A DNA stretch of 64,000 bases, taken from Acidimicrobiales bacterium (lineage in GTDB: Bacteria; Actinomycetota; Acidimicrobiia; Acidimicrobiales; Aldehydirespiratoraceae). The translations under genes were made by a program, and so were the position numbers. Position 1 is the first letter of the stretch. Every line of letters starts with the position of its first letter. The DNA lies in the NCBI GenBank assembly GCA_049437325.1, contig JBMTIM010000006.1:3453-67452 (forward strand), read 5' to 3'. The notes beneath the pieces were generated by a model. The model was not told where the DNA came from. It ran no database searches and was given only the letters and a program-made list of their open reading frames with translations. Below are positions 1,163 through 43,107 of the stretch, one piece after another.

Positions 1163-2224
1163 TCAGACGAACGGCAGCGCGTGCACAGCCGCTGCGACAT
1201 CGGTCCCCCGAACGTCGATCGTCAGCGCTGTGGCTGCCTCGAGCGCCCGGTCGAGGAACGCAAGCGCAATGCCCTGTCCGAGCACAGGCGAAAAGTTTCC
1301 ACTGCTCACCATGCCGACCTCGACGCCGTCGAGTTTCACCAGTTGCCCAGCCCGAGGAGGGCGCCGACCCTCCACGAGAAGGCCATGGAGACGCTTACGC
1401 ACGCCGGCGGCCGTCTCCGCTTCGAGGGCCGACTTCCCCCGGAACTCGCCCTTGTCCATTCGGACGACCCAATCCAGACCGGCCTGTCCTGGGGTGATGC
1501 CAGGCCCGAGCTCATGACCGTGGAGGGGAAGGCCTGCTTCGAGACGGAGTGTGTCACGGGCGCCGAGTCCGGCCGGCTCGACGCCTGCGGCGAGGATGGC
1601 ATCCCAGACGTGCCGGGCTGCGGCGGCCGGCACTGCGATCTCGACGCCGTCCTCCCCGGTGTAACCGGTCCCAGCGGCGAGCACGTCGACGCCTGCGAGC
1701 GTGACAGAGCCCACGCAGAACCGACCGACGGTGTGCAAGGTCGGCGCAATGGCCTCGAGTCGAGCCCGAGCGTCCGGTCCTTGCACGGCCAACACCGCGC
1801 GCGACGTGGTCACGTCCTCCATGACCAGGTCTGCCGAGCCCAGCGCCTCGCTCACCCGATCGGTGTTCGACGCATTGGGCATGACATCGAAACGGTCGGT
1901 ATCGACCCACCACACGATGATGTCGTCCAAGACCGAACCATCGGCCGGATCGAGGAGATGGGTGTATTGGGCACGGCCCGGTCCGATCCGCGTGAGGTCG
2001 TTGGTGAACGCCCACTGGAGTGAGTCGAAGGCACCGGGACCGACCACGCGGAGCGTGCCGAGGTGTGAGACGTCGAACACGACAGCCGCGTTCCTGCAGG
2101 CCATGTGCTCTGCGAGTGTGCCCGAGTGGTACGCCAGGGGCATGCTCCAGCCCCCGAACGGCACCAGCTTGGCACCAGCCTCCACATGCGCGCTGTGAAG
2201 GGGTGAGCGCCGCTCAGGCGGCAT
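1163..2224 (-). CDS. gcvT: glycine cleavage system aminomethyltransferase (T protein)
   Basis: SPLHSAHVEAGAKLVPFGGWSMPLAY...VFDVSHLG N-terminus and overall length match GcvT. gcvH lies on the same strand nearby. Confidence 0.93.
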   Translation of the reverse strand: MPPERRSPLHSAHVEAGAKLVPFGGWSMPLAYHSGTLAEHMACRNAAVVFDVSHLGTLRVVGPGAFDSLQWAFTNDLTRIGPGRAQYTHLLDPADGSVLDDIIVWWVDTDRFDVMPNASNTDRVSEALGSADLVMEDVTTSRAVLAVQGPDARARLEAIAPTLHTVGRFCVGSVTLAGVDVLAAGTGYTGEDGVEIAVPAAAARHVWDAILAAGVEPAGLGARDTLRLEAGLPLHGHELGPGITPGQAGLDWVVRMDKGEFRGKSALEAETAAGVRKRLHGLLVEGRRPPRAGQLVKLDGVEVGMVSSGNFSPVLGQGIALAFLDRALEAATALTIDVRGTDVAAAVHALPFV

Positions 2225-2543
2225 CGGCGAGGACGAGCCCGTATTTGGTTCCGAGGGCCTCGATGTCGCGCCGGTAGAGCAGCTTCACGTTCACCTCAGG
2301 ATGCACGTCGGCCATCCGACGAACTTTGCGATTCTTCCTCGTGACGAGTGGCTGCCGCAGGGTGGTCAGCTCGACGTAGGTGTCGAAGTCAGGGAGGTAG
2401 AAGTCGGGCGTGAACGCCTCGACAACATTGCCGTCAGCATCGGTCTCGAGCACGAATGTCGTCGGCTCGTACTCGAACCGTACGCCGTAACCGGTCAGCA
2501 ACCCCGCAAGTTGGGCTTCCGACTCGTGCGCAAATGTTGCCAT
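2214..2543 (-). CDS. conserved hypothetical small protein (family not recognised)
   Basis: Uninterrupted 109-codon ORF with G/C-rich third positions. Its stop overlaps the gcvT start by 11 nt. The PDFYLPDFDTYVELT segment is vaguely PD-(D/E)xK-like. Confidence 0.5.
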   Translation of the reverse strand: MATFAHESEAQLAGLLTGYGVRFEYEPTTFVLETDADGNVVEAFTPDFYLPDFDTYVELTTLRQPLVTRKNRKVRRMADVHPEVNVKLLYRRDIEALGTKYGLVLADAA

Positions 2544-2552
2544 ACGCAGGTT

Positions 2553-3017
2553 TTAGTTCTCGCCAACCGCCCGTTGGGTGATGACCTGGTCCGCAATCTC
2601 GGGATAGAGCAACACGATGCGAGTGTCGACCTGTTCCTTGACCCCGGAGAGGGGCAGGACGTTGAGCACGCCCTGGCCGTTCTGCAGCAGATCGATGAGC
2701 TCTTCACCAGTGTTCACGAGCACCGAGTTGGAGCCATCGATCACGAGATTGGCCGATGCGACATCCTCCCCGAGCTGGTTTCGCATGTAGGCGAACACCT
2801 TTCGCACCTGCTCGAGACGGATGCCGGCATCGAGCAGACTCTTGATGACCTTCAACTCCAGAAGATCGCGATAGCTGTACTTGCGTCGACTCCCGCTCCC
2901 CGTCGCTTCGGCCATCGACGGCTTCACGAGATCGGTTCGCGCCCAGTAGTCGAGTTGCCGGTACGTGATATCGACGATCTCGGCTGTCCGCTTGCCGGAA
3001 AACCCCTGCTCGGTCAT
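2553..3017 (-). CDS. MerR family transcriptional regulator (Rv1830-like)
   Basis: N-terminal HTH KRTAEIVDITYRQLDYWARTDLVKPS. ATG at 3017 is preceded by GGGAG. The track ORF extends to a GTG at 3032. Confidence 0.85.
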   Translation of the reverse strand: MTEQGFSGKRTAEIVDITYRQLDYWARTDLVKPSMAEATGSGSRRKYSYRDLLELKVIKSLLDAGIRLEQVRKVFAYMRNQLGEDVASANLVIDGSNSVLVNTGEELIDLLQNGQGVLNVLPLSGVKEQVDTRIVLLYPEIADQVITQRAVGEN

Positions 3018-3040
3018 CTCTGACTCCCTCACTCAACCGA

Positions 3041-7710: not shown

Positions 7711-8943
7711 CTACGGAAGCTCGCCGGTCAGCGTGCAGGTACCAGCCTTCCCAGCGCCGAGATCGAACAGCAGATCGTCACCCACCGCACCTCCGAAACG
7801 TGGAATCCGGACGTCGCTCCCGGGGTCGACGGCAATCGTCGAGCGCTGGCTCAGCACCTCGTAGTCATCGTCACTGTCGACGATGAGCTGGACACGAACA
7901 GCATCGGCGAAACCAGTGCCCCCCTCGGGCAGGTCGACCTGTCCGGCCGGAATGTCGAGCGCCAGCAGCAGTGCCGTCGGCCCGGCACACCCGACCGCCG
8001 GTTCACGTCCGACCGGATCGGTGCACGGCCCGTGCGTGACGGTGTCGAGCGGCCGCAGTCCCGACGTCACCACACTCGCTCGGAGGCAGGCCACATCGGC
8101 GAATCCGGTCGGTCCGACGATGACCACGTGGCCGGCACCTGCGAACTGGAACAGGGCCGCAACGAGCGAACCGGGCGGATAGGGAAAGGCGGCGAACGGG
8201 GGTGTCGTGACCCGATCCTCCACCGGACCAGCACCGCTGCGAACTGCAACGGTTTCGCTGAGTACCGTGGTCAACGCCGGTTCCGCAACGGGAGGACCAC
8301 CCTCGAGGGCGGCGACGGCCGCCGGTTCACCGGTCGTCTCGAACTGGAGCGCCCCTCGCTCCCGTGGCGGTTCGATACCGAACTCCTGGTATGCCCACCA
8401 GCCCCCGACGAGCACAACACCGGCCACGACCAGGCCAGTCACGCTCGCCACGATCCGTTGTCGCCGGCCGAGCACCAGGTTCTTCTCGACCTGTCGCTCG
8501 TCGAGTCGCTCTTGCAGCGTGAGCGGCCCGAATGCCTCGTCCCGGGCACCGCCGGCGATCAGCTCACGCCAGCGCATCTGCACATCGTCGGGCATGGCCA
8601 CCAGATGCGTCTCGAACAACTCGCCGACACCCTCTGAGTACAGCAGGAGCAGCCCGTTGCTTCGCACGTGCTCGACGGGGTCCTCCAGGTCGTAGTCGAG
8701 TTGGCGTTCTCCGGCGAGCAGATCGAAAAAACGTCGAGCAGCTGCGTCGGCTTCTGCGGCCGTGTACGACGTTCCGGCCGGCGCAACCGGCAGTCGAATC
8801 GGCCCGTCACCGGCGCGGAGAAACCCGGTGGTCACGACGAAACTGTCGGGCCGAATGTCCTCCGCCGTAGGAGGGGGCAACTGCTCGGGCAGTTCTCCGC
8901 CGTGCTCATCGGGAGCGGTGATGTCTGGGAGGTCGTGGCTCAC
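7711..8943 (-). CDS. hypothetical single-pass membrane protein
   Basis: 410-codon ORF with coding-like codon bias. It has one central TM (IVASVTGLVVAGVVLVGGWWAY). I recognise no family. Confidence 0.55.
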   Translation of the reverse strand: MSHDLPDITAPDEHGGELPEQLPPPTAEDIRPDSFVVTTGFLRAGDGPIRLPVAPAGTSYTAAEADAAARRFFDLLAGERQLDYDLEDPVEHVRSNGLLLLYSEGVGELFETHLVAMPDDVQMRWRELIAGGARDEAFGPLTLQERLDERQVEKNLVLGRRQRIVASVTGLVVAGVVLVGGWWAYQEFGIEPPRERGALQFETTGEPAAVAALEGGPPVAEPALTTVLSETVAVRSGAGPVEDRVTTPPFAAFPYPPGSLVAALFQFAGAGHVVIVGPTGFADVACLRASVVTSGLRPLDTVTHGPCTDPVGREPAVGCAGPTALLLALDIPAGQVDLPEGGTGFADAVRVQLIVDSDDDYEVLSQRSTIAVDPGSDVRIPRFGGAVGDDLLFDLGAGKAGTCTLTGELP

Positions 8944-9014
8944 GTTGTGCGGAGACTACGCCCAACGTCGCCAGCGCTGGTGGCGCTTGCTGCGGGTTCT
9001 GCGACAATCTGCGG

Positions 9015-11075
9015 GTGCACAACCTCGAATTCGTCCTGGCATCCGGATCTCCCCGCCGCAAGGAGCTTCTGGCCCGGCTCGACGTCCACCCAGTGGTGGA
9101 GCCCGCCGACATCGACGAGACCCCAGAGCCGGGAGAATCGGCCGTTGCCTACGTCGAGCGCCTCGCCCGCAACAAGGCGGCCTCGTCGGCAGCTCCAGGA
9201 CGCGTGGTGCTCGCAGCCGACACATCCGTCGTTCGCGATGGCGTCATCCTTGGCAAGCCGTCCGACGCTGTCGAGGCATCGTCGATGCTCCAGTCCCTTG
9301 CCAACCGTCGGCACGACGTCGTGACCGGTGTCGCCGTGGGCGTCACCAACGCCGAGGGAACCTCGGTCGTCCACTCCGCAGTCGAGGTGAGCACGGTCGA
9401 AATCGGCAACCTGCACGACGACCGGCTCGCGTGGTACGTGGCGACCGAGGAACCTGCCGACAAGGCGGGCGCCTACGGGCTCCAGGGAGCTGCAGGGCTC
9501 TTTGCCGACCGCGTCGATGGCAGTGTCACCAACATCATCGGTCTCCCGCTCCCCCTCGTCGACGACCTGTTCTCCCGCCACGATCTCGACCTCTTGGATT
9601 TCCGGAGTCGCCCAACGCCCGATCCGGTGCGAGCGATTGCCGAACTGGCACTCGACCATGTGACGAACCCACCGGGGGAAGCCGACCCGGTCATCGACTG
9701 GGGGTCACCGGAGGACCTGCTCGCTGACCTGGCCGCCACGATCGGCACCGAGTTCGCCACGCATGAGCCCGCAGCAGCGGCCGGTGACCTTGTCGCGGCG
9801 GCAGAGCGCGTCCTCGCTCGATCGGTCCACACAAACCACCCTCGCTTCATCAATCAGAACTACGCGGGAGCCGATCCCCTCGCTGTTGTGGGCGATTGGT
9901 TGGGAGCAGCCCTCAACACGGCGCACACGACCTACGAGATCGCACCCGTCTTCATGCTCATGGAGCGGGCGCTCCTCGACAAAATGGCTCGTCTCGTCGG
10001 ATGGAACCCGGATCCGGAGCAGCCGGCTGGACTCATGTGCGCAGGCGGCTCCATCGCCGGCATGCACGGACTCCAGTTGGCGCGGGCCGCCCGTGACCCA
10101 TCCTCGCTCGATCGGGGCCATGACGGGACACCGTTGCGACTGCTGGTCAGCGCCTCTGCCCACTACTCCACTGCGAAGATGGCAGCGGTCATGGGATTCG
10201 GCCGTGATGCGGTGCAGGCGATCGCAACCACGCCCGACGGCGCAATGGACATGGATGCCCTCGATGCTGCGCTGGCCGAAGGGCCGGAGGTGCTGGCGAT
10301 CGTTGCGACTGCCGGCACGACGGTGACGGGCGCCTTCGATCCGCTCGACGAGATTGCCACCCGCTGTGCCGAGCACGGCATCTGGATGCACGTCGACGGT
10401 GCGTTCGGATGCGCTGCGCTCTTCTCGCAGCGACAGCGGTGGCGTTGTGAGGGCATCGACAAGGCCGACTCCATCACCTGGAACCTTCACAAGATCGGTG
10501 GTGTCACCCAGCAGTGCTCTGTGCTCCTGGTGGCTGATCCGAGTCGACTCCATCCGACGTTCGCATCGGGTGCCGATTACCTGTTCCAGTCCGACAAGCT
10601 TTTCGGCAGGTACGACTCCGGCGACCAGAACATCCATTGCGGTCGACGCAACGACGTCTTGAAGGCGTGGTTGATGTGGAAGGGCCGCGGCGACGCCGGG
10701 ATGGCGCGCCGCATCGACCATGCGGTGGCGCTCGCCGACCACGTTCGGGCTCGACTCGAGGAGCGGGCCGACCTCGACGCCGTCGTGGCAGGTGACTTCG
10801 TCACGTCGACGTGTTTGTGGGTACCACCCGAGATGCGGCCCCTCGATCTGTCGTCGCTCACGACCGAGCAGCATGCGACGTTGCATGCGATCGCTCCCGC
10901 AGCCAAAGCGCTCATGCAGGCCCAGGGCGAAGCATTGATCGGCTACCAGCCGGTCCACGACATCAACTGCTTTCGACTGATCTTCATGAATCCCGACGTG
11001 TCCTTCGACGACGCCGACCGCCTCCTCGATCTGATCGCAGAGCACAGCGAGGCGGCTTGGCGCCTCGCCCGATGA
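9015..11075 (+). CDS. fusion protein: Maf-like nucleoside triphosphate pyrophosphatase (N-terminal) and group II PLP-dependent decarboxylase, GAD/CSAD-like (C-terminal)
   Basis: Residues ~1-195 are Maf-like: LASGSPRRKELL, AGAYGLQG, TNIIGLPL. Residues ~270-686 are decarboxylase-like: HPRFINQNYAG, TYEIAPVFMLME, DSITWNLHK (PLP lysine codon at 10491..10493), IHCGRRNDVLKAWLMW. There is no in-frame stop between the two parts. Confidence 0.85.
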   Translation: MHNLEFVLASGSPRRKELLARLDVHPVVEPADIDETPEPGESAVAYVERLARNKAASSAAPGRVVLAADTSVVRDGVILGKPSDAVEASSMLQSLANRRHDVVTGVAVGVTNAEGTSVVHSAVEVSTVEIGNLHDDRLAWYVATEEPADKAGAYGLQGAAGLFADRVDGSVTNIIGLPLPLVDDLFSRHDLDLLDFRSRPTPDPVRAIAELALDHVTNPPGEADPVIDWGSPEDLLADLAATIGTEFATHEPAAAAGDLVAAAERVLARSVHTNHPRFINQNYAGADPLAVVGDWLGAALNTAHTTYEIAPVFMLMERALLDKMARLVGWNPDPEQPAGLMCAGGSIAGMHGLQLARAARDPSSLDRGHDGTPLRLLVSASAHYSTAKMAAVMGFGRDAVQAIATTPDGAMDMDALDAALAEGPEVLAIVATAGTTVTGAFDPLDEIATRCAEHGIWMHVDGAFGCAALFSQRQRWRCEGIDKADSITWNLHKIGGVTQQCSVLLVADPSRLHPTFASGADYLFQSDKLFGRYDSGDQNIHCGRRNDVLKAWLMWKGRGDAGMARRIDHAVALADHVRARLEERADLDAVVAGDFVTSTCLWVPPEMRPLDLSSLTTEQHATLHAIAPAAKALMQAQGEALIGYQPVHDINCFRLIFMNPDVSFDDADRLLDLIAEHSEAAWRLAR

Positions 11076-12381: not shown

Positions 12382-12948
12382 CTAGAAGTCGATGCCTTTC
12401 TTTGCCGCGATCCCGGCGTCGTAGGCGTGTTTGCGATTCTCGATCACGCTCACCGTGTCGGCGAGCTCGATCATCCAATCGGGCGCGTCGCGGCCGGTCA
12501 GAACGAGGGAGACGCGCGCCGGGCGGTTGCGAAACGTCTGCTCGACCTCAGCGGCGTCGAGCCAGCCCCAATTCAGTGGATAGGTGATCTCGTCGAAGAT
12601 CACCAGTCGGTGCTCGCCTGCGTCGACGAGAGACTTTCCGTGACGCCACGCTTCTTTCGCCTCGGCTTCGTCCTTGGTGAGGTCGTCGGAGTCCCAGGTG
12701 AATCCGTCACCCAGCGACCAGAAGTCGATACCGAGTTGCGGAGCCATGATCTGCTCACCGGTCACCCAGTCGTCGCTCTTGAGAAATTGCACGACCGCCA
12801 CGGGCCAGTTGCGTGCCCGCGCCCGCAGTGCCACCCCGAACGCAGCCGACGACTTTCCTTTCCCGTCACCGGTGTTGACGAGCACGAGACTGCTTGCAGT
12901 TCGAAGGCCGTCCGGCCGGGGGTCGTCTTGCAGCGGCACATCGGTCAT
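12382..12948 (-). CDS. cobO: cob(I)yrinic acid a,c-diamide adenosyltransferase
   Basis: P-loop NTGDGKGKSSAAFGVALRA, VVQFLKS and DEITYPLNWGWL match CobA/CobO/BtuR. It is the last gene of the riboswitch-led operon. Confidence 0.9.
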   Translation of the reverse strand: MTDVPLQDDPRPDGLRTASSLVLVNTGDGKGKSSAAFGVALRARARNWPVAVVQFLKSDDWVTGEQIMAPQLGIDFWSLGDGFTWDSDDLTKDEAEAKEAWRHGKSLVDAGEHRLVIFDEITYPLNWGWLDAAEVEQTFRNRPARVSLVLTGRDAPDWMIELADTVSVIENRKHAYDAGIAAKKGIDF

Positions 12949-13724
12949 CGTGGACTCCGATCGGGTGTGGCAGGGACGATCACCGGACCGTCGGGCTCGT
13001 CGATGATGCGAACGGTCGCTCCGAAGTGTTCGGCGATCACCTCGGCGGTCAGCACCTCAGCGGGTGCCCCCGACACGACGATACGCCCATCGGCGAGCAG
13101 TGCGATCCTGTCGCCGTAACGCGCCGCCAGTGTGAGGTCGTGCAGCGTTGCGATCACGGTCAGTCCTCGCTCACGACGAAGACCGTCGACCAGATCGAGA
13201 ACGTCTTGTTGATGGCCCAGGTCGAGAGCGGTCGTCGGCTCGTCGAGCAGCAGGATGTCGGCTTGCTGTGCGAGTGCTCGCGCCAGCACAACCCGCTGAC
13301 GTTCTCCACCAGACAACGATCGGACCTCCCGTTCGACAAAGCCCGCAAGATCCAGACGGTTCAGGACATCGATCGCAACCGCAACGTCGGTGTCGGTGTC
13401 ACGGCCGAAGACCCCACGGTGAGGCGTTCGGCCCAGCATCACGTAGTCGACGACGTACATTCCCGGTGGGATGACAGGAGACTGCGGCACGTAGGCGAGG
13501 ACGCGTGCGCGGTCTTGGGGTTTGTCGATGACAACGCCGCCGATCTCGATCCGACCCTCGTGGCCGATCGTGCCGAGCAGGGAACGAAGCAGCGTGGTCT
13601 TTCCCGACCCGTTGGGTCCGATGATGTTGATCCACTCGCCTTCTGCGATGTCGAGGTCGACCCCGTGCAGGATCGGGACGCCGCCGAGTGCGACGGACAG
13701 GGCGCCGGTGGTGATCGAGGGCAC
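12945..13724 (-). CDS. ABC transporter ATP-binding protein (iron-siderophore/cobalamin type, BtuD/FepC-like)
   Basis: Walker A GPNGSGKTT, signature LSGGERQR, Walker B ILLLDEPT. The GTG start at 13724 overlaps the permease stop. The track's 150-codon N-terminal extension is Arg/Gly junk overlapping the permease. Confidence 0.9.
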   Translation of the reverse strand: MPSITTGALSVALGGVPILHGVDLDIAEGEWINIIGPNGSGKTTLLRSLLGTIGHEGRIEIGGVVIDKPQDRARVLAYVPQSPVIPPGMYVVDYVMLGRTPHRGVFGRDTDTDVAVAIDVLNRLDLAGFVEREVRSLSGGERQRVVLARALAQQADILLLDEPTTALDLGHQQDVLDLVDGLRRERGLTVIATLHDLTLAARYGDRIALLADGRIVVSGAPAEVLTAEVIAEHFGATVRIIDEPDGPVIVPATPDRSPR

Positions 13725-14761
13725 TACCAGACCTCCCGGCGGCTCGTGCGCAGGACAACCACGAAGAACGGCGCGCCGAGGAAGGCGGTCACGACCCCGA
13801 TGGGCAGTTCTGCCGGCTCGACGAGCGTTCGGGCGGCGAGGTCTGCCAGCACCATGAAGGCCCCACCGAACAGGATCGAGAGCGGGATGAGGACCCGATA
13901 GCTCGTTCCGAACACGAGGCGCACGACGTGGGGAACGATGATCCCGACAAAGCCGATGAGGCCGCTGACCGACACGGCCGCAGCCGCACCCAGCGACGCT
14001 GCGACAACGACGTGGATCCGGACTCGACGTGGGTCGATCCCCAGCGCCTGCGCCTCTTCGTCCCCGACCGCCAAAATGTCGAGCGCCCGGCGGTAGCGCA
14101 GCATGACAGCGACCGCCACCACGAAGTACGGCAGCAACAGCATCGGCTCGGACCAGCCCGATGTCGCAACGCGACCGAGAATCCACGAATACACCTCACG
14201 GAAGGCATCGGAGTTGGCCTGCAGAACATATGTCTGGCAGGCGGTGAGAAAGCTCGCAACCGCAACCCCGGCAAGAACGAGTGACGCCGTGGAACGTCCG
14301 CCGATGTAACCCGCCCCATAGGACAACACGACGGCGAAGAGTGCACCGGCGAAGGCCGAAAGGGGAACCAGGTCGACCAAGCCCGAACCGTCACCGAGAT
14401 TCTGTGTGATGGCAATCGTTGCGCCGAGGCCGGCCCCAGCCGCGACACCGAGGAGATACGGGTCGACCAGCGGATTGCGAAAGGCACCCTGATATGCAGC
14501 GCCGCTGACCGACAGCGTCGCACCCACGAGGAGCCCGAGCACGACTCGAGGGAGCCGGACTTCTTGCACGATGGCTTCGTGGATACTGCTCAACCCGGAG
14601 TCGGCGCTGAGTCCGGGAATGGCATCGACCAGGGCGTAGAGCACGGCCCGGGGTGCGATGCCGACCGGACCGACGCCGAGACCGGCGACGACTGCGACGA
14701 CAAGCGCGGCGAACCCGGCCCCCAGCGCAGGGGCTCGAAGTCGGGTCGGCTCGATCGTCAT
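13724..14761 (-). CDS. FecCD-family ABC permease (BtuC-like)
   Basis: A polytopic membrane protein of about 345 aa, with the family-typical C-terminus PIGVVTAFLGAPFFVVVL. Confidence 0.9.
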   Translation of the reverse strand: MTIEPTRLRAPALGAGFAALVVAVVAGLGVGPVGIAPRAVLYALVDAIPGLSADSGLSSIHEAIVQEVRLPRVVLGLLVGATLSVSGAAYQGAFRNPLVDPYLLGVAAGAGLGATIAITQNLGDGSGLVDLVPLSAFAGALFAVVLSYGAGYIGGRSTASLVLAGVAVASFLTACQTYVLQANSDAFREVYSWILGRVATSGWSEPMLLLPYFVVAVAVMLRYRRALDILAVGDEEAQALGIDPRRVRIHVVVAASLGAAAAVSVSGLIGFVGIIVPHVVRLVFGTSYRVLIPLSILFGGAFMVLADLAARTLVEPAELPIGVVTAFLGAPFFVVVLRTSRREVW

Positions 14762-14765
14762 CAGC

Positions 14766-15644
14766 TCAGTCGGTGTGAGCCGACTCGACCGCAGCGGCTA
14801 TGGCCTCGACGAAGTCGACGAGACGCGGACCCCATCGGGAAACGACGTCGTCGTCGAGTTCGACCACGTTGCCGTTCTGTACCGCCGTGAGCTGGTCCCA
14901 GCCTGGCCGCGCTGCGACCGTTGCTGCGCTCTGCGCACAACATCGCGTGTCGGCAAGGAAGATCACGTCGGGGTCGGCGTCGAGGAGATACTCGTCACTG
15001 AGTTGGGGATAGCCGAAGGCGGCGCCGTCTGCGTCAGCCGCATCAGCGACATTGGTCAGCCCGAAGAGTGCATACACCGCGCCGATGAAGGTGGAGCTGG
15101 TGACGCTGTAGAGGGTGTTGTCGAGTTCGTGGTAGTAGGTCAGTGCCGACGACTGGGGGGCGTCGTCGACCAGGCCGTCGATGGCCGTCCGCATGGCGTC
15201 GACCACCACCGCCGCCTCGGGGGCGAATCCTGTCGCGTCGCCGACCAGTTGGATCTGGCTGTAGACCTCTTCGATCGCCGACGGCGCGGCGATGACCAGC
15301 ACCGACACGCCGGCGGCTTCCAGACCGCTGCGGAGGTCGTCGTTCCAGTCCATGACGACCAAGTCGGGCTCGAAGGAAAGGATTGCCTCGATGTTGGGGT
15401 CCCAACCCGAGAGATCGGTGAGTGGTGTTCCTTCCGGGTAGTAGGAGAACTCGTCGACGGCGACAACGAGATCGCCGGCTCCCACCGCGTAGAGCATCTC
15501 GGTGCCGGTCGGCGTGATGGACACGATTCGTTCAGCCGGCGCCGAATCGACCGCCATCTCGTCGGCCGGTTCGGCGTCGCCGCAGGCGGCGCCGAGAAGC
15601 GCCATGACAAGCAGCAGAGCCAGGGATGTGACCAATCTTTTCAC
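14766..15644 (-). CDS. ABC transporter periplasmic-type substrate-binding lipoprotein (BtuF/helical-backbone class)
   Basis: GTG at 15644 is preceded by AGGAGGA. The lipoprotein signal is VKRLVTSLALLLVMALLGAACG. It is the first gene after the cobalamin riboswitch. Confidence 0.85.
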   Translation of the reverse strand: MKRLVTSLALLLVMALLGAACGDAEPADEMAVDSAPAERIVSITPTGTEMLYAVGAGDLVVAVDEFSYYPEGTPLTDLSGWDPNIEAILSFEPDLVVMDWNDDLRSGLEAAGVSVLVIAAPSAIEEVYSQIQLVGDATGFAPEAAVVVDAMRTAIDGLVDDAPQSSALTYYHELDNTLYSVTSSTFIGAVYALFGLTNVADAADADGAAFGYPQLSDEYLLDADPDVIFLADTRCCAQSAATVAARPGWDQLTAVQNGNVVELDDDVVSRWGPRLVDFVEAIAAAVESAHTD

Positions 15645-15689
15645 GAGGGTTCCTCCTGTGGCTCGAGTCCGGCTGGCACGAGCGCTCGG

Positions 15690-15846
15690 AAACCCCGATC
15701 GCACGAGCCGTCCCTTTTCCTCGAGGGTCGGTTCGTCGTCCACTCCAGGCGACCGGACTCGTCCTACCCACCGAAGTGGACGGGCATCACCGTTGCGGGA
15801 CAGTTCCGGGATCTCACCGGATTCGCTGCATGTGAACGGGCGAAGC
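15690..15846 (-). promoter_or_regulatory. cobalamin (B12) riboswitch
   Basis: The minus-strand RNA reads AAUCCGGUGAGAUCCCGGAACUGUCCCGCAACGGUGA (15787..15823), then CCACUUCGGUGGG, then the B12-box-like GAGUCCGGUCGCCUGG (15745..15760). It lies upstream of a B12-type importer operon. Boundaries are approximate. Confidence 0.78.
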
Positions 15847-16902
15847 CTAGCGACCAAGAGCGTCGAGACGCTCGATCGCCTCGGCGACGATACGCCCGAT
15901 CAGTTCGTCGCAGCTCGGGAGGTCGTCGACGACGCCGACGCATTGACCGGTCGGGAGGATGCCGACATCGATCTGCCCGTCGACCATCGTCGCCCGAGTC
16001 AACATCGGCGCGTTGGCCGCCATCGCCAGCTGTGACCACGTCAGGCCCTGGCGCTTGCGCATCGCGAACCCCTCCTTGACCAGGTCACCCAACGCCGTGT
16101 CGGTCAGCTTGCGGAACCGGAGCGCATTGAGTGCAGCTCGCGGAAACCGCAGCAGCCCAGCCCGCTCGAGCGACTCGACCATCTCGGTGCGGACGACTCG
16201 CTGGGGGGCACCATCGATCGCCGTCGAAACGACGGTCCCGGTGACGGGAGTGGCGAGGTAGGCCTGCTTGACCGTGTCGGGAACCTCCGAATCTGCGGTC
16301 AGCAGGAACCGAGTACCCATCGCAATGCCATCAGCACCCCATGCCAGCGCTGCAGCAAGCCCACGACCGTCGTGAAAACCGCCGGCTGCGATGACGGGAA
16401 TCTCGACTGCATCGAGAATCTGCGGCAACAGCAACGAGGTGGGAACCGTGCCGGTGTGGCCACCGCCTTCCCCGCCCTGACAGAGCACTGCGTCGACACC
16501 CCACGCCGCCACTTTCTCGGCGTGCCGCCGGGCGCCGACGGTCGGGACCACCACCAGCCCGTGCTCCTTGAGTTTCGCGACCATGTCGGGGCGCGGCGCC
16601 TGCGCAAACGACGCAACTCGGACTTCGGCCCGGATGAGATGGTCGACCCGCTGATCGATGTCGACGGCATCGGTGCGCAGGTTGACCCCGAAGGGACATT
16701 CGGTGCGACGCTGCACGTCCTCGATCGCCGTAACCATCTCGTCGAAGGTCATCGTGGCAGCAGCGAGAATGCCGAGACCGCCAGCGTTGGCCGTGCCCAC
16801 CACGAGGGACGGACCCGCGACCCAGCCCATTCCGGTCTGCACGATCGGGAATCGAACGCCGAACAATTCGGTTGCACGGGTTTGGAGTCGTGGATCGACC
16901 AT
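15847..16902 (-). CDS. nitronate monooxygenase / NAD(P)H-dependent flavin oxidoreductase (NMO family)
   Basis: FPIVQTGMGWVAGPSLVVGTANAGGLGILAA and QGGEGGGHTG are NMO/2-nitropropane dioxygenase motifs. Confidence 0.88.
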   Translation of the reverse strand: MVDPRLQTRATELFGVRFPIVQTGMGWVAGPSLVVGTANAGGLGILAAATMTFDEMVTAIEDVQRRTECPFGVNLRTDAVDIDQRVDHLIRAEVRVASFAQAPRPDMVAKLKEHGLVVVPTVGARRHAEKVAAWGVDAVLCQGGEGGGHTGTVPTSLLLPQILDAVEIPVIAAGGFHDGRGLAAALAWGADGIAMGTRFLLTADSEVPDTVKQAYLATPVTGTVVSTAIDGAPQRVVRTEMVESLERAGLLRFPRAALNALRFRKLTDTALGDLVKEGFAMRKRQGLTWSQLAMAANAPMLTRATMVDGQIDVGILPTGQCVGVVDDLPSCDELIGRIVAEAIERLDALGR

Positions 16903-16995
16903 TCTCGAAGCCTAAGACCTAGGGTGGCGCAGACCCGAGTCGGTCCTGCAAACGCAACCGCGACGGCGAGCACACGAGAGGGGGTTGGAGAACCG

Positions 16996-18033
16996 ATGAC
17001 GAAACGGCTCACCGAGTTCAGTCATGGCGCTGGTTGAGGCTGCAAGCTCGCCCCGGGCGAGTTGGCGCAGGTCGTGCGCCGCCTCACTCCTCCGGATGCT
17101 CCGGACCTGCTCGTCGGCGCGGCGAGTGGCGACGACGCAGCGGTGTACCGCCTCTCGCCCGAGCGCGCCCTGGTGGTCACCGCCGACTTCATCACGCCGG
17201 TGGTCGACGACGCCAGGGCATGGGGTCGGGTGGCTGCCGCCAACGCAGTGTCCGACGTCTACGCCATGGGGGGCACGCCCCTGCTCGCCATCAACCTCGT
17301 GTGTTGGAACACCGAGGAACTTTCCAACGAACTTCTCGGAGATGTTCTTCTCGGCGGCCAAGACGTCGCCGATGCGTGTGGATTTCTTGTCGCCGGTGGC
17401 CACACCGTCGACGACCCAGAACCCAAATACGGCATGGCCGTGGTCGGCGAGGTCCATCCCGACCGTCTGCTCACCAACGCCGGGCTCGTCGCCGGTCAAT
17501 CGTTGATCCTGACGAAGCCACTGGGCATCGGCATCATCACCACGGCACAGAAGCGCAACGTGGTCGACGACGCAACCATTGCTGCTGCGATCGATTCCAT
17601 GAGCCGAACCAATGCCGAAGCCGCCGCACGCGCGGTTGCCGCCGGTGCCACCGGTGCCACCGATGTGACCGGTTTCGGACTCCTGGGGCACGCCGGACGG
17701 ATGGCCCAGGAATCGGAGGTGTCGCTCCGGATCGATGTCGGGTCGGTACCGGTGATCGACGGTGCCCGCGAGCTCGCAGCGGACGGCGTCGTACCTGGGG
17801 GCACGGGTCGCAACCTGGCATGGATCCTCGACACCGTCGAGATCGGCGAGGGTGTCACCGACCTCGACGTGACGATCCTCGGCGATGCGCAGACCAGCGG
17901 CGGTCTGCTGTTCGGGGTCGATCCTTCCCGCGCCGAAGGCGTCGTTGCCGAGCTGGAAGCAAGCGGTCACGTCGCAGCATGTATCGGAACCGTGACCGCC
18001 GGCAACGGGACCATGTTCCTAACTCGAGGCTGA
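16996..18033 (+). CDS. selD: selenide, water dikinase with in-frame UGA (selenocysteine) at 17035..17037
   Basis: ATG at 16996 gives MTKRLTEFSHGAG-[TGA]-GCKLAPGELAQVV. This aligns with the E. coli SelD N-terminus SHGAGCGCK, where that position is Cys17. The frame continues into the 17062..18033 ORF (DDAAVY..., AMGG, PurM-like fold). Confidence 0.85.
17042..17066 (+). promoter_or_regulatory. candidate SECIS hairpin for the selD UGA
   Basis: GCAAGCUCGCC-CCG-GGCGAGUUGGC forms a stem of 10 pairs in 11 positions, with one A/G mismatch. The stem starts 4 nt after the UGA and the apical loop lies about 15 nt downstream. Confidence 0.5.
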
Positions 18034-22383: not shown

Positions 22384-23283
22384 GTGACAACGAAGAGCAC
22401 GTCGGGAACGGATGCACTGCCGCCAGTGCTCGAGTTCGTGGTAGGCCATGCCCCCATGGAGATCCATCGCCTGACCGGCGCGCTCGGAGCCGAAATCACC
22501 GGTGTCGACCTTGCCGATGCCCTGACTGACGAGACGGTCGCAGAGATTCGGGCGGCCTTCAACGAGCATCACGTGCTGTTCTTTCGCGGCCAGCACTGGA
22601 CGCCAGAGCAGCAGATCGCGTTCGGACAACGTTTTGGCGAGCTCGACACCCACCCGTTTGTCGAGGGCAACGAGGCGTACCCGGAGATCCTCGACGTCGT
22701 CACCGACCCCGACGATGTCGTCAACTTCGGCGGGGGTTGGCACACCGACGTGACCTTCCTCCCCGAGCCCGACCTCGGTTCCATCCTCTATGCCGTCGAG
22801 GTTCCCGAACACGGTGGCGACACCCTCTTCGCCAACCAGCACGCTGCCTACGATGCGATGAGTGACGGGTTCAAAGGCCTCCTCGACGGTCTCCACGCCA
22901 CCCACTCTGCGGGGCAGCAGTATCAGGAGGGCGGCTACTCGACCCGCTCCAAGCAGATGCGCACCAAGAACCCCGAGCTGGCTGCCGAGCATGTCGTCCA
23001 TCCGGTGATCCGTACCCACCCGGAGAACGGACGCAAAGCGTTGTACGTCAACCGGGCGTTCACGACCGGCATCGTCGGTCTGCACCCGCACGAGTCGACC
23101 GCGCTGCTTCGCATCCTCCACGAGCAGACCACCCGTGAGGCCTTCACCTGCCGATTTCGCTGGGAGCCTGGCTCGGTGGCCATGTGGGACAACCGCTCCG
23201 TGCAGCACTACGCGATGTTCGACTACGCCGGGAAGCGGCGACACATGCGCCGCGTGACCATCAAGGGCGACACGCCGGTCTGA
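22384..23283 (+). CDS. TauD/TfdA family Fe(II)/2-oxoglutarate dioxygenase
   Basis: GAEITGVDL, WHTDVTFLPEPDLGSILYAVEVPEHGGDTLFAN (HxD facial triad), WDNRSVQH. The start is uncertain: GTG 22384 or ATG 22456. Confidence 0.9.
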   Translation: MTTKSTSGTDALPPVLEFVVGHAPMEIHRLTGALGAEITGVDLADALTDETVAEIRAAFNEHHVLFFRGQHWTPEQQIAFGQRFGELDTHPFVEGNEAYPEILDVVTDPDDVVNFGGGWHTDVTFLPEPDLGSILYAVEVPEHGGDTLFANQHAAYDAMSDGFKGLLDGLHATHSAGQQYQEGGYSTRSKQMRTKNPELAAEHVVHPVIRTHPENGRKALYVNRAFTTGIVGLHPHESTALLRILHEQTTREAFTCRFRWEPGSVAMWDNRSVQHYAMFDYAGKRRHMRRVTIKGDTPV

Positions 23284-42027: not shown

Positions 42028-43107
42028 TCAGCCGGAGGCTCCACCGAACAACGACATCGGGTCGTCGGCCCCGCCTCCGACAACTGCCCGCAGGTCTGAG
42101 TTGGCGGCACCAGCGAACGAGTCGAGATCGAGTTGAACACGAATCTCGGCGGAGGCCGAGGCCAGACCCTCGTCGATCGGAATGCCGGTGCCGTCGGCCA
42201 CACGGACCAGCCCAGAGAACGCGGCGACGGTTGCCGCTGCCTGCGCAGCGCCATCCATGCCGACGCTTGCGATCAGGGCCCGCCGTGACTCAGCGAGCGG
42301 AGCGCCCCGCACTGCGGCCTCGGCAAAGGCGAGAAGTTCGGCTCCGCCGGCGATTCCGCTCTCGGCTGGATCCCCCGAACCGATGGCCGTGTCGAGATCG
42401 ACCTCGACTTCCATCGCGTCACTGCTCGCACGGAGCAGCGTCGTATGGGCAGTCGTTCAATAGAAACATTCGTTCATCGCTGCCACCCTCGCTGCCACGA
42501 GTTCGACCTGCGGGCGCGACAACGGGGTGGTCCAGACGAGCTCGTCGAACCCTGCGGCCGAGTACATCGGACGCACGAGCGTGTAGAAGGTCGTGTTCGC
42601 GCTCGGTACCTGGCTCAGCGCACGAGCGACATTCGCAAATGGAAACGGTTCGAGCATCTTGACGTGGGCGCCGATGTCTCCGAGTCCGTCCGGGGTCAGG
42701 CGCGACGCCTCACCGGGTGTGGTCGCCGGGCTGATCGGTTCGACGTCGGCACCGACCGCGTCGGCGAAGAGACGCAAGGCAACGGCAACGGCGGTGGTAC
42801 CGACGAGCTCCACGTAGGGACCCTCTCCCAGTTCAGCGATCCGTTCGGCGGCCCACGCCGCATCGACGGATCCCGGCTCACATGCGATGCGATCGATGAC
42901 CGCGCACGCCGACCGCCCAAGGGTGCTGTTCGCAACGGGCAGATCGTGATTCCACGGTGCAACGTGGCGCTGTCGGCTCCGAGCATCGGCTCGCGCGACG
43001 ATCGAGCCGATTGCGTCGGCCTCGAACCACGTACCACTCCTGCCGAGCCGCGTTCGGGTCTCCTCGATTGCATCTGCGTAGTCGGACCCGACCGAGATCA
43101 TGGCCAT
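42028..43107 (-). CDS. AhpD/carboxymuconolactone-decarboxylase-family protein with in-frame UGA (selenocysteine) at 42457..42459
   Basis: Two same-frame ORFs are separated by a single TGA. Read-through gives ...VAAMNECFY-U-TTAHTTLL..., the family redox signature CxxC(x)3H with U in place of the second Cys. The ATG at 43107 is preceded by GGAGG. Confidence 0.7.
42420..42440 (-). promoter_or_regulatory. candidate SECIS hairpin for the AhpD-like UGA
   Basis: On the minus strand, CGCUGCUC-CGUGC-GAGCAGUG forms 8 pairs including one G-U. The stem starts 16 nt after the UGA and the GU-containing apical loop starts 24 nt after it. Confidence 0.45.

Follow-up and report, generated by a model that had tools for sequence, protein, structure and literature searches.

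A selD gene with an in-frame UGA and tandem downstream hairpins, predicted to be of the selenocysteine type, in an Acidimicrobiales bacterium

The selD locus and its reading frame

The window, a 64-kb stretch of DNA from an uncultured marine Acidimicrobiales bacterium, harbours a selD gene whose frame is crossed by a UGA codon shortly after the start. The following features define its 5′ region.

16996..18033, plus strand: full-length selD coding sequence, 345 sense codons and a stop, with the predicted selenocysteine (Sec) at codon 14 and the domains AIRS and AIRS_C
16987..16990, plus strand: GGAG Shine-Dalgarno motif, 5 nt 5′ of the ATG at 16996, read directly from the sequence
17035..17037, plus strand: in-frame UGA, the predicted Sec codon, equivalent to Cys17 of Escherichia coli SelD
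17074..17076, plus strand: GTG from which public gene callers begin (319-aa product); a false start, located within the second hairpin, HP2

A single frame extends from the ATG at 16996 through the TGA at 17035–17037 and is then free of stops up to the TGA at 18031–18033. The start region reads gaaccgATGacgaaacggctcaccgagttcagtcatggcgctggtTGAggctgcaag..., and the conceptual product consists of MTKRLTEFSHGAG before the UGA and GCKLAPGELAQVV... after it. The longest stop-free open reading frame begins at a TTG at 17062, 66 nt 3′ of the ATG. When the UGA is written as cysteine, the 345 residues score 371.2 bits on the NCBIfam equivalog model for selD, TIGR00476, whose cut-off is 125 bits, and 353 bits on NF002098 (cut-off 299); Pfam PF00586 (AIRS) and PF02769 (AIRS_C) both fall within the called portion. 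The TIGR00476 match places profile positions 1–310 on product residues 4–312, that is, it begins 5′ of the UGA. A phmmer search of the PDB aligns residues 4–338 with residues 7–339 of E. coli SelD (3U0O). In this alignment RLTEFSHGAG-U-GCK lies over RLTQYSHGAGCGCK, residues 7–20 of the E. coli protein, so that the UGA falls on Cys17 and the next lysine on Lys20. Both residues are required for catalysis by E. coli SelD.

The first-pass annotation of this DNA had identified the gene as selD, moved its start to the ATG 66 nt ahead of the called open reading frame and placed the UGA at the position of the catalytic cysteine. The identity is borne out by the TIGR00476 score, the AIRS/AIRS_C pair and the 3U0O alignment, the start by the frame and by a profile match that sets in at residue 4, and the position of the UGA by the 3U0O alignment. 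In all likelihood the gene is a Sec-type selD, encoding selenide, water dikinase, in which the UGA would be decoded as Sec by means of a downstream hairpin; the predicted activity is the synthesis of selenophosphate from selenide and ATP.

In public databases the gene appears in a shortened form. Calls of 319 aa starting at the GTG at 17074 are found in six assemblies of the same species, and all 120 best database entries (NCBI, JGI, ENA, Logan and Tara) are truncated, with lengths of 304–323 aa (∼319) and a coverage of 88–92%. The public calls omit 26 codons at the 5′ end and, with them, the catalytic Sec and Lys, so that a survey by domains would count SelD as present and overlook the organism's use of Sec.

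Conservation of the UGA codon and of the segment before it

With each species represented by a single genome, 80 related selD loci were retrieved; 28 of them carry TGA at the Sec codon and 52 TGC or TGT. Alternation between Sec and Cys codons at this position, claimed earlier from the sequence of the window, is thus a feature of its relatives, and no sense codon other than those for Cys occurs there in the 80 loci. The nearest relative is an Actinomycetota metagenome-assembled genome (MAG), JAPOHW01, whose SelD, on contig JAPOHW010000016.1, is 97% identical; the next sixteen are Acidimicrobiia/Acidimicrobiales MAGs, and TGA is present in all 17. The codon is also TGA in Gemmatimonadota, in two MAGs labelled 'delta proteobacterium', in a Myxococcaceae MAG, in a Gaiellales MAG and in other Actinomycetota. 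The TGC/TGT loci include Pseudonocardia, Streptomyces and Arthrobacter.

Six of six independent metagenome assemblies of the window's species have TGA at this codon, which excludes a sequencing error; in five of them the codon four places ahead of it differs synonymously (AGT>AGC). An alternative genetic code with UGA as Trp or Gly was rejected, as homologues have Cys at this position and the stop of selD is itself a TGA.

The Sec-type alignment comprises 28 sequences, namely 27 loci and the window. Over the nine codons that precede the UGA (LT-x-[FYL]-SHG-[AS]-G), variation amounts to 0.135, 0.115 and 0.353 at the first, second and third codon positions, whereas a non-coding control segment farther upstream varies by ∼0.6 at all three. 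Pairwise codon differences before the UGA are synonymous in 1431 cases versus 554 nonsynonymous ones, and most relatives have an in-frame start 11–19 codons before the UGA. By its pattern of substitution, the segment 5′ of the UGA evolves like coding sequence.

Two conserved hairpins downstream of the UGA

Two adjacent hairpins follow the codon.

17045..17063, plus strand: HP1, an 8-bp hairpin, AGCUCGCC-CCG-GGCGAGUU; conserved, not like a bacterial SECIS (bSECIS), and probably a spacer or the equivalent of a lower helix
17064..17080, plus strand: HP2, GGCGCA-GGUCG-UGCGCC, with its loop at 17070–17074, 32 nt from the UGA; the probable apical hairpin of a bSECIS

Across the 28-sequence alignment 89% of the cells of HP1 are paired and five of its eight pairs have changed on both sides; the corresponding values for HP2 are 97.6% and four of six pairs. 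The two hairpins together show 83% of cells paired, a proportion that falls to 34–42% when the 3′ partners are slid by 1–3 columns. Not one of 500 column shuffles reached any of the observed measures of pairing or covariation, and RNAalifold recovers HP1 and HP2 independently. When the single sequence is shuffled, the region does not stand out by its fold (z = −1.4), which is explained by the high GC content; the reality of the hairpins rests on the comparative data. A further helix that would close around both hairpins and the UGA, joining alignment columns 7–12 with 53–58, is just 60% paired and therefore lies outside the conserved element.

As the hairpins sit in coding sequence, Cys-type genes provide a better control, and Sec-type and Cys-type genes were compared over the same codons at equal GC (0.69). 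HP2 forms 5.86 of its 6 pairs in the Sec-type genes versus 2.96 in the Cys-type genes, and the local minimum free energy (MFE) is −21.6 versus −14.6 kcal/mol (Mann-Whitney p = 5.6e-9). HP1 already reaches 5.1 of 8 pairs in Cys-type genes because its outer pairs derive from conserved Lys-Leu and Glu-Leu codons. The protein also bears on HP2: a conserved Val codon opens with the invariant G-U of its loop, and the conservation of the loop is therefore not independent of protein constraint.

A covariance model was built from the Sec-type alignment, with one locus, L065, held out of training. This locus, a Sec-type selD from Myxococcaceae with the motif SHCAG-U-AAK, scores 55.7 bits, whereas its Cys-type sister from Corallococcus (L063) gives no match and all Cys-type loci score 35.5 bits or less. 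The model finds no second match in the 64-kb window. Rfam offers no match to the recoding region of selD at a threshold as loose as E ≤ 10, a result of little weight, since its coverage of bacterial SECIS elements is poor.

Which of the two hairpins is the likely SECIS

The published bSECIS consensus describes an apical loop of 3–9 nt on a stem of 4–16 bp, a G at loop position 1 or 2 (typically N1-G-[G/U]-N-N2, with N1 and N2 pairing), a distance of 16–37 nt between UGA and loop and an MFE of −7.5 kcal/mol or lower (PMC13188914). HP2 agrees with it on all four counts, having a 5-nt loop (GGUCG), a stem of 6–7 bp, a distance of 32 nt and an energy of −10.0 kcal/mol. Its loop takes the form N-G-U-N-N in 29 of 29 Sec-type loci, with N1 and N2 complementary in most; 25–27 of these loci fit the consensus, and 25 reach −7.5 kcal/mol. 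HP1 departs from the consensus on two counts, as its loop has no G and stands 15 nt from the UGA. HP2, and not HP1, is on these grounds the probable SelB-binding bSECIS.

The first-pass annotation had pointed to a strong hairpin at about 17042–17066 and proposed a SECIS prediction. The hairpin exists and is conserved, as HP1; the prediction favours its neighbour. That HP1 should nevertheless be the element bound by SelB is improbable. In favour of HP1 is its proximity: it begins 7 nt after the UGA, nearer than HP2, and the minimal SECIS element of E. coli begins 11 nt after its UGA (PMC8659212); it is also stable, at −10.9 kcal/mol, with compensatory changes in five of its eight pairs. On the other side, its loop is CCN, devoid of G, in 28 of 29 Sec-type loci and lies outside the range of 16–37 nt, and it is kept less well than HP2, reaching −7.5 kcal/mol in 17 of the 29 loci against 25, with the lower proportion of paired cells given above. 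Moreover, most of its pairs are already seen in Cys-type genes, and a G-U pentaloop resembling the loop of HP2 occurs in the other putative selenoprotein gene of the window.

A second gene with an in-frame UGA

That other gene encodes an AhpD-like protein with a CMD domain.

42028..42950 (upper coordinate approximate), minus strand: putative AhpD-like/CMD selenoprotein gene, motif NECFY-U-TTAH
42457..42459, minus strand: its in-frame UGA, in a CxxU motif
42420..42440, minus strand: hairpin after the UGA, 8 bp, loop CGUGC

The protein matches PF02627 (CMD) with 27.5 bits against a cut-off of 23, over the motif C-x-x-U-x-x-x-H. Its hairpin stands out from shuffled sequence (z = −3.08; 0 of 200 shuffles). 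Each of 17 metagenome relatives, at 31–99% identity, retains both TGA and hairpin, the latter with compensatory changes; the set consists of TGA-type genes only, although one of the search patterns presumed a Cys codon. Because this second conserved UGA gene has a hairpin of its own, the organism very probably decodes UGA as Sec. Conserved UGA codons at Cys-equivalent catalytic or redox sites, together with G-U pentaloop hairpins, in two unrelated genes are to be expected of a working SelB system and provide strong indirect evidence of Sec decoding.

The search for the selenocysteine machinery

The absence of selA, selB and selC from the 64 kb, remarked on earlier, holds in tRNA, tblastn and Pfam searches alike. 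The tRNA genes of the window are those for tRNA-Pro and tRNA-Ala only, with no tRNA-Sec, and at the gathering score Rfam recognizes nothing besides the tRNAs and a cobalamin riboswitch. Neither SelA nor SelB was found in the window by tblastn or by Pfam calls on most of the long open reading frames, and LepA is its sole EF-Tu-like GTPase. Public contigs of the same species yield no Pfam calls for SelA or SelB in the ∼10 kb beyond either end of the window.

The related loci fall into two groups. ARAGORN detects tRNA-Sec in none of 27 Sec-type loci and, as a control, in 10 of 10 Cys-type loci; tblastn finds no SelA or SelB in the Sec-type loci and both proteins in 30 Cys-type loci. Where 5 kb or more of flanking sequence is available on both sides, selA/selB lie near selD in 0 of 19 loci of the Sec type versus 29 of 42 of the Cys type (Fisher p = 1.2e-7, a value that ignores kinship among the loci).

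Wider searches were made with SelA. When seeded from a Pseudonocardia-like locus (L021), all 120 matches listed were Pseudonocardia relatives. At the level of representatives the search returned 2,119 clusters (E ≤ 1e-30), and no Acidimicrobiia are named among the 20 top representatives, which include Streptomyces, Gemmatimonadota and one 'Actinomycetota bacterium'. A profile of two candidate environmental SelA clusters matched the assemblies JBCKAI01 and JGI Ga0194117, neither of which belongs to the selD MAGs. SelA is present in Gemmatimonadota MAGs, and selA-selB operons unlinked from selD occur in other Actinobacteria. In the window's organism selA, selB and selC presumably reside elsewhere in the genome.

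Three further candidates for recoding proved unremarkable. A molybdopterin oxidoreductase of 744 aa just past the left end of the window was considered as an FdhA selenoprotein but contains neither an in-frame UGA nor a Sec site. An in-frame pair at 2214–3032 (minus strand) and the stop of TauD at 23281, both considered as sites of read-through, are ordinary adjacent genes.

Proposed decoding of the UGA and alternative readings

Translation would begin at the ATG at 16996. At the UGA (17035–17037), SelB carrying Sec-tRNA(Sec) would be tethered by HP2 (17064–17080), and Sec would be inserted where termination would otherwise occur. The residue would thereby be placed in the glycine-rich N-terminal loop SHGAG-U-GCK, three residues before the equivalent of Lys20. 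HP1 would occupy the space between the UGA and HP2, and probably behaves like the lower helix of the E. coli element, which melts when the ribosome arrives. The binding of SelB to HP2 and the role of HP1 are here inferred from the comparison of sequences. As SelD supplies the selenium donor for the charging of tRNA(Sec), a Sec-type SelD depends on its own product, an autocatalytic arrangement known for Sec-type SelD/SPS2.

A more elaborate reading assigns HP1 a function of its own. HP1 and HP2 would then form a two-part recoding element and the gene a self-contained feedback cassette responsive to selenium, perhaps spread horizontally. This is unlikely. The linkage contrast between Sec-type and Cys-type selD loci (0/19 versus 29/42) fits such an arrangement, and, if it were true, a two-part element would be common almost base for base to Acidimicrobiia, Gemmatimonadota, deltaproteobacterial and myxobacterial MAGs, in which HP1 might pause the ribosome or tune read-through to the supply of Sec-tRNA.

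It is very unlikely that read-through of the UGA inserts a residue other than Sec, for instance by a near-cognate Cys or Trp tRNA stimulated by the RNA structure, in an organism devoid of Sec machinery. Read-through of UGA by an amino acid other than Sec has been proposed at the same position for the insect protein SPS1 (hymenopteran SPS1-UGA) (PMC4561486), and none of the Sec-type loci has selA, selB or selC near selD. Such a reading is nonetheless hard to reconcile with HP2, which fits the consensus of SelB-type bSECIS elements, and with the AhpD-like gene, an unrelated gene whose conserved UGA stands at a CxxC-type redox site before a similar G-U pentaloop hairpin and which argues for general decoding of Sec. 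It would also leave the organism with a SelD that has neither Sec machinery nor a selenouridine synthase to serve, and we know of no use for SelD in that setting. Related lineages do possess the machinery, as reported for Actinomarinales (10.64898/2026.04.03.716425) and as indicated by SelA in the Gemmatimonadota MAGs.

The notion that the UGA is a true stop, with a functional truncated protein starting at the GTG at 17074 or the TTG at 17062 and the 13-codon frame before it serving as a leader or remaining untranslated, is almost certainly wrong: gene callers do treat the codon as a stop throughout the six assemblies and the 120 nearest entries, and Sec machinery was not located in the loci searched, but the truncated product would lack the entire glycine-rich loop with the equivalents of Cys17 and Lys20, the 5′ segment is conserved across phyla as in-frame protein with mostly synonymous changes and a SelD profile match from residue 4, and both internal starts fall within conserved hairpins. 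The preferred reading remains decoding of the UGA as Sec.

Relation to known selenoprotein systems

Sec-type SelD is already known to be common and long established: Haemophilus influenzae, Aquifex aeolicus and the marine SelD of the Global Ocean Sampling provide bacterial examples, and E. coli SelD is of the Cys type. The gene of the window shows no fundamental difference from these Sec-type proteins, sharing with them the family, the AIRS/AIRS_C pair, the SHGAG-[U/C]-GCK loop, a UGA followed by a hairpin in the coding region and an autocatalytic mode in which the enzyme needs its own product. Of the SelD genes in a reference set of prokaryotes, 19% are of the Sec type, always with Sec at the same position, and selenoprotein genes are described as 'usually misannotated' (PMC4561486). 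Among the selenoprotein families of the Global Ocean Sampling, SelD came second in abundance, with 357 Sec forms, and AhpD-like CxxU families (AhpD-like 1 and 2) were also prominent (PMC2398784); a 2026 review ranks SelD as the second most widespread selenoprotein family of prokaryotes (PMC13188914).

Sec-type SelD has likewise been reported in another order of the Acidimicrobiia. Actinomarinales possess selA, selB and selC together with a Sec-form SelD of 342–346 aa that starts with MRLT, and their sel machinery is scattered around the chromosome (10.64898/2026.04.03.716425). The SelD described here comes from the same taxonomic class as that of Actinomarina, with the Sec form and the M-R-L-T start in common, and dispersed sel genes are on record for Actinomarina. 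The two organisms belong to different orders and differ greatly in their genomes; that of Actinomarina is ∼1.1 Mb in size, and the window has a GC content of 65%. The Actinomarina preprint contains no description of a SECIS, Rfam models having failed there, whereas a two-hairpin element is defined here. With respect to Cys-type selD genes of actinomycetes, which are usually found beside selA, selB or selC, the selD of the window differs in being unlinked from them.

What is specific to the present case is thus the truncation of the database entries of a lineage, the conservation of tandem hairpins across several phyla and a selD unlinked from the sel genes. The current understanding of selenoprotein biology is unchanged; the result is a useful re-annotation, and its main value lies in the correction of gene calls in an abundant uncultured lineage. 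The organism is plentiful, for instance, in the samples behind the ENA assemblies ERZ27313226 and ERZ927693. The UGA-containing selD and the AhpD-like CxxU gene 25 kb away mark the organism as a probable Sec-decoding, selenium-dependent bacterium, a point of relevance to the ecology of trace elements in Actinomycetota of marine and estuarine waters. Truncated calls of this kind could be repaired automatically with the HP1/HP2 element as defined here and with the covariance model, which tells selD genes of the Sec type from those of the Cys type.

The core of the SECIS of E. coli fdhF, GCA-GGUC-UGC, is closely similar to that of HP2, GCA-GGUCG-UGC: both display a short stem of G and C pairs and a G-U at loop positions 2–3. 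The two elements differ in spacing, since the loop of HP2 is 32 nt from the UGA and that of fdhF ∼18 nt. They also differ in what lies between, which here is a separate conserved hairpin, HP1, rather than the lower half of one long helix, and HP2 has no evident bulged U equivalent to U17.

The AhpD-like gene resembles the marine AhpD-like families in its CMD/AhpD match over the CxxU motif and in the hairpin after its UGA (PMC2398784). Its product, at ∼300 aa and with one short CMD match, is longer than the members of those families.

Truncated selD starts and a Myxococcaceae sister pair

The start codons used for the truncated form of SelD both fall within the conserved hairpins that follow the selD UGA: 17062 lies in the 3' arm of HP1, the first of the two, and 17074 in the loop of HP2, the second and likely bSECIS element. 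These codons are the choices of ORF finders and gene callers, and the truncated form is the one found in all 120 of the 120 nearest public entries.

A sister pair is formed by a Myxococcaceae MAG (L065:10034) and Corallococcus praedator (L063), which share the rarer active-site loop SH-C-AG-[U/C]-AAK. The loop reads CxxU in the MAG, whereas it reads CxxC in C. praedator; HP2 is intact in the former, Sec-encoding gene and has been lost from the latter, Cys-encoding one.

Genomic linkage of selD

Inspection of the flanks of selD in the 80 related loci (L001-L080) placed the Sec-type gene beside selA, selB or tRNA-Sec in none of the 19 loci with adequate flanks and the Cys-type actinomycete gene near them in 29 of 42, both counts being made irrespective of phylogeny. 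The tRNA-SeC gene directly adjoins Cys-type selD in all 10 loci scanned. Operons of selA and selB lying apart from selD were observed in uncultured freshwater and other Actinobacteria (L111:760-3968 and L112:6001-9200), and thus dispersed sel genes exist elsewhere in the phylum.

At a Pseudonocardia-like Cys-type locus, a gene resembling NifS/cysteine desulfurase is located immediately 5' of selD (L021:8801-11074, minus strand) and is possibly a selenium-delivery partner; no counterpart was seen next to Sec-type selD.

A probable AhpD-like selenoprotein gene

The window also harbours an AhpD-like/CMD gene with an in-frame UGA, which ordinary gene calling breaks into two ORFs:

42028-42950 (upper coordinate approximate), minus strand: AhpD-like/CMD gene
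42457-42459, minus strand: UGA within the motif NECFY-U-TTAH
42420-42440, minus strand: strong hairpin after the UGA

Both the TGA and the hairpin are kept in 17 of 17 metagenome relatives.

Other features of the window

Four sizeable minus-strand ORFs of coding-like composition have no Pfam match, and a predicted fusion protein is encoded in every assembly of the species:

8922-11075, plus strand: fusion (686 aa) of Maf (nucleotide pyrophosphatase) and PLP-dependent decarboxylase domains
7711-8955, minus strand: ORF, 410 aa
47231-48991, minus strand: ORF, ~586 aa
50371-51666, minus strand: ORF, ~431 aa
52313-53278, minus strand: ORF, ~321 aa

A B12-type uptake operon has a cobalamin riboswitch on its upstream side:

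15731-15873, minus strand: cobalamin riboswitch (Rfam RF00174, 33.8 bits)
~12382-15899: operon for a periplasmic binding protein, FecCD permease, ABC ATPase and CobA/BtuR adenosyltransferase

The riboswitch slightly overlaps the 3' end of an NMO-family gene, which is divergent from selD.
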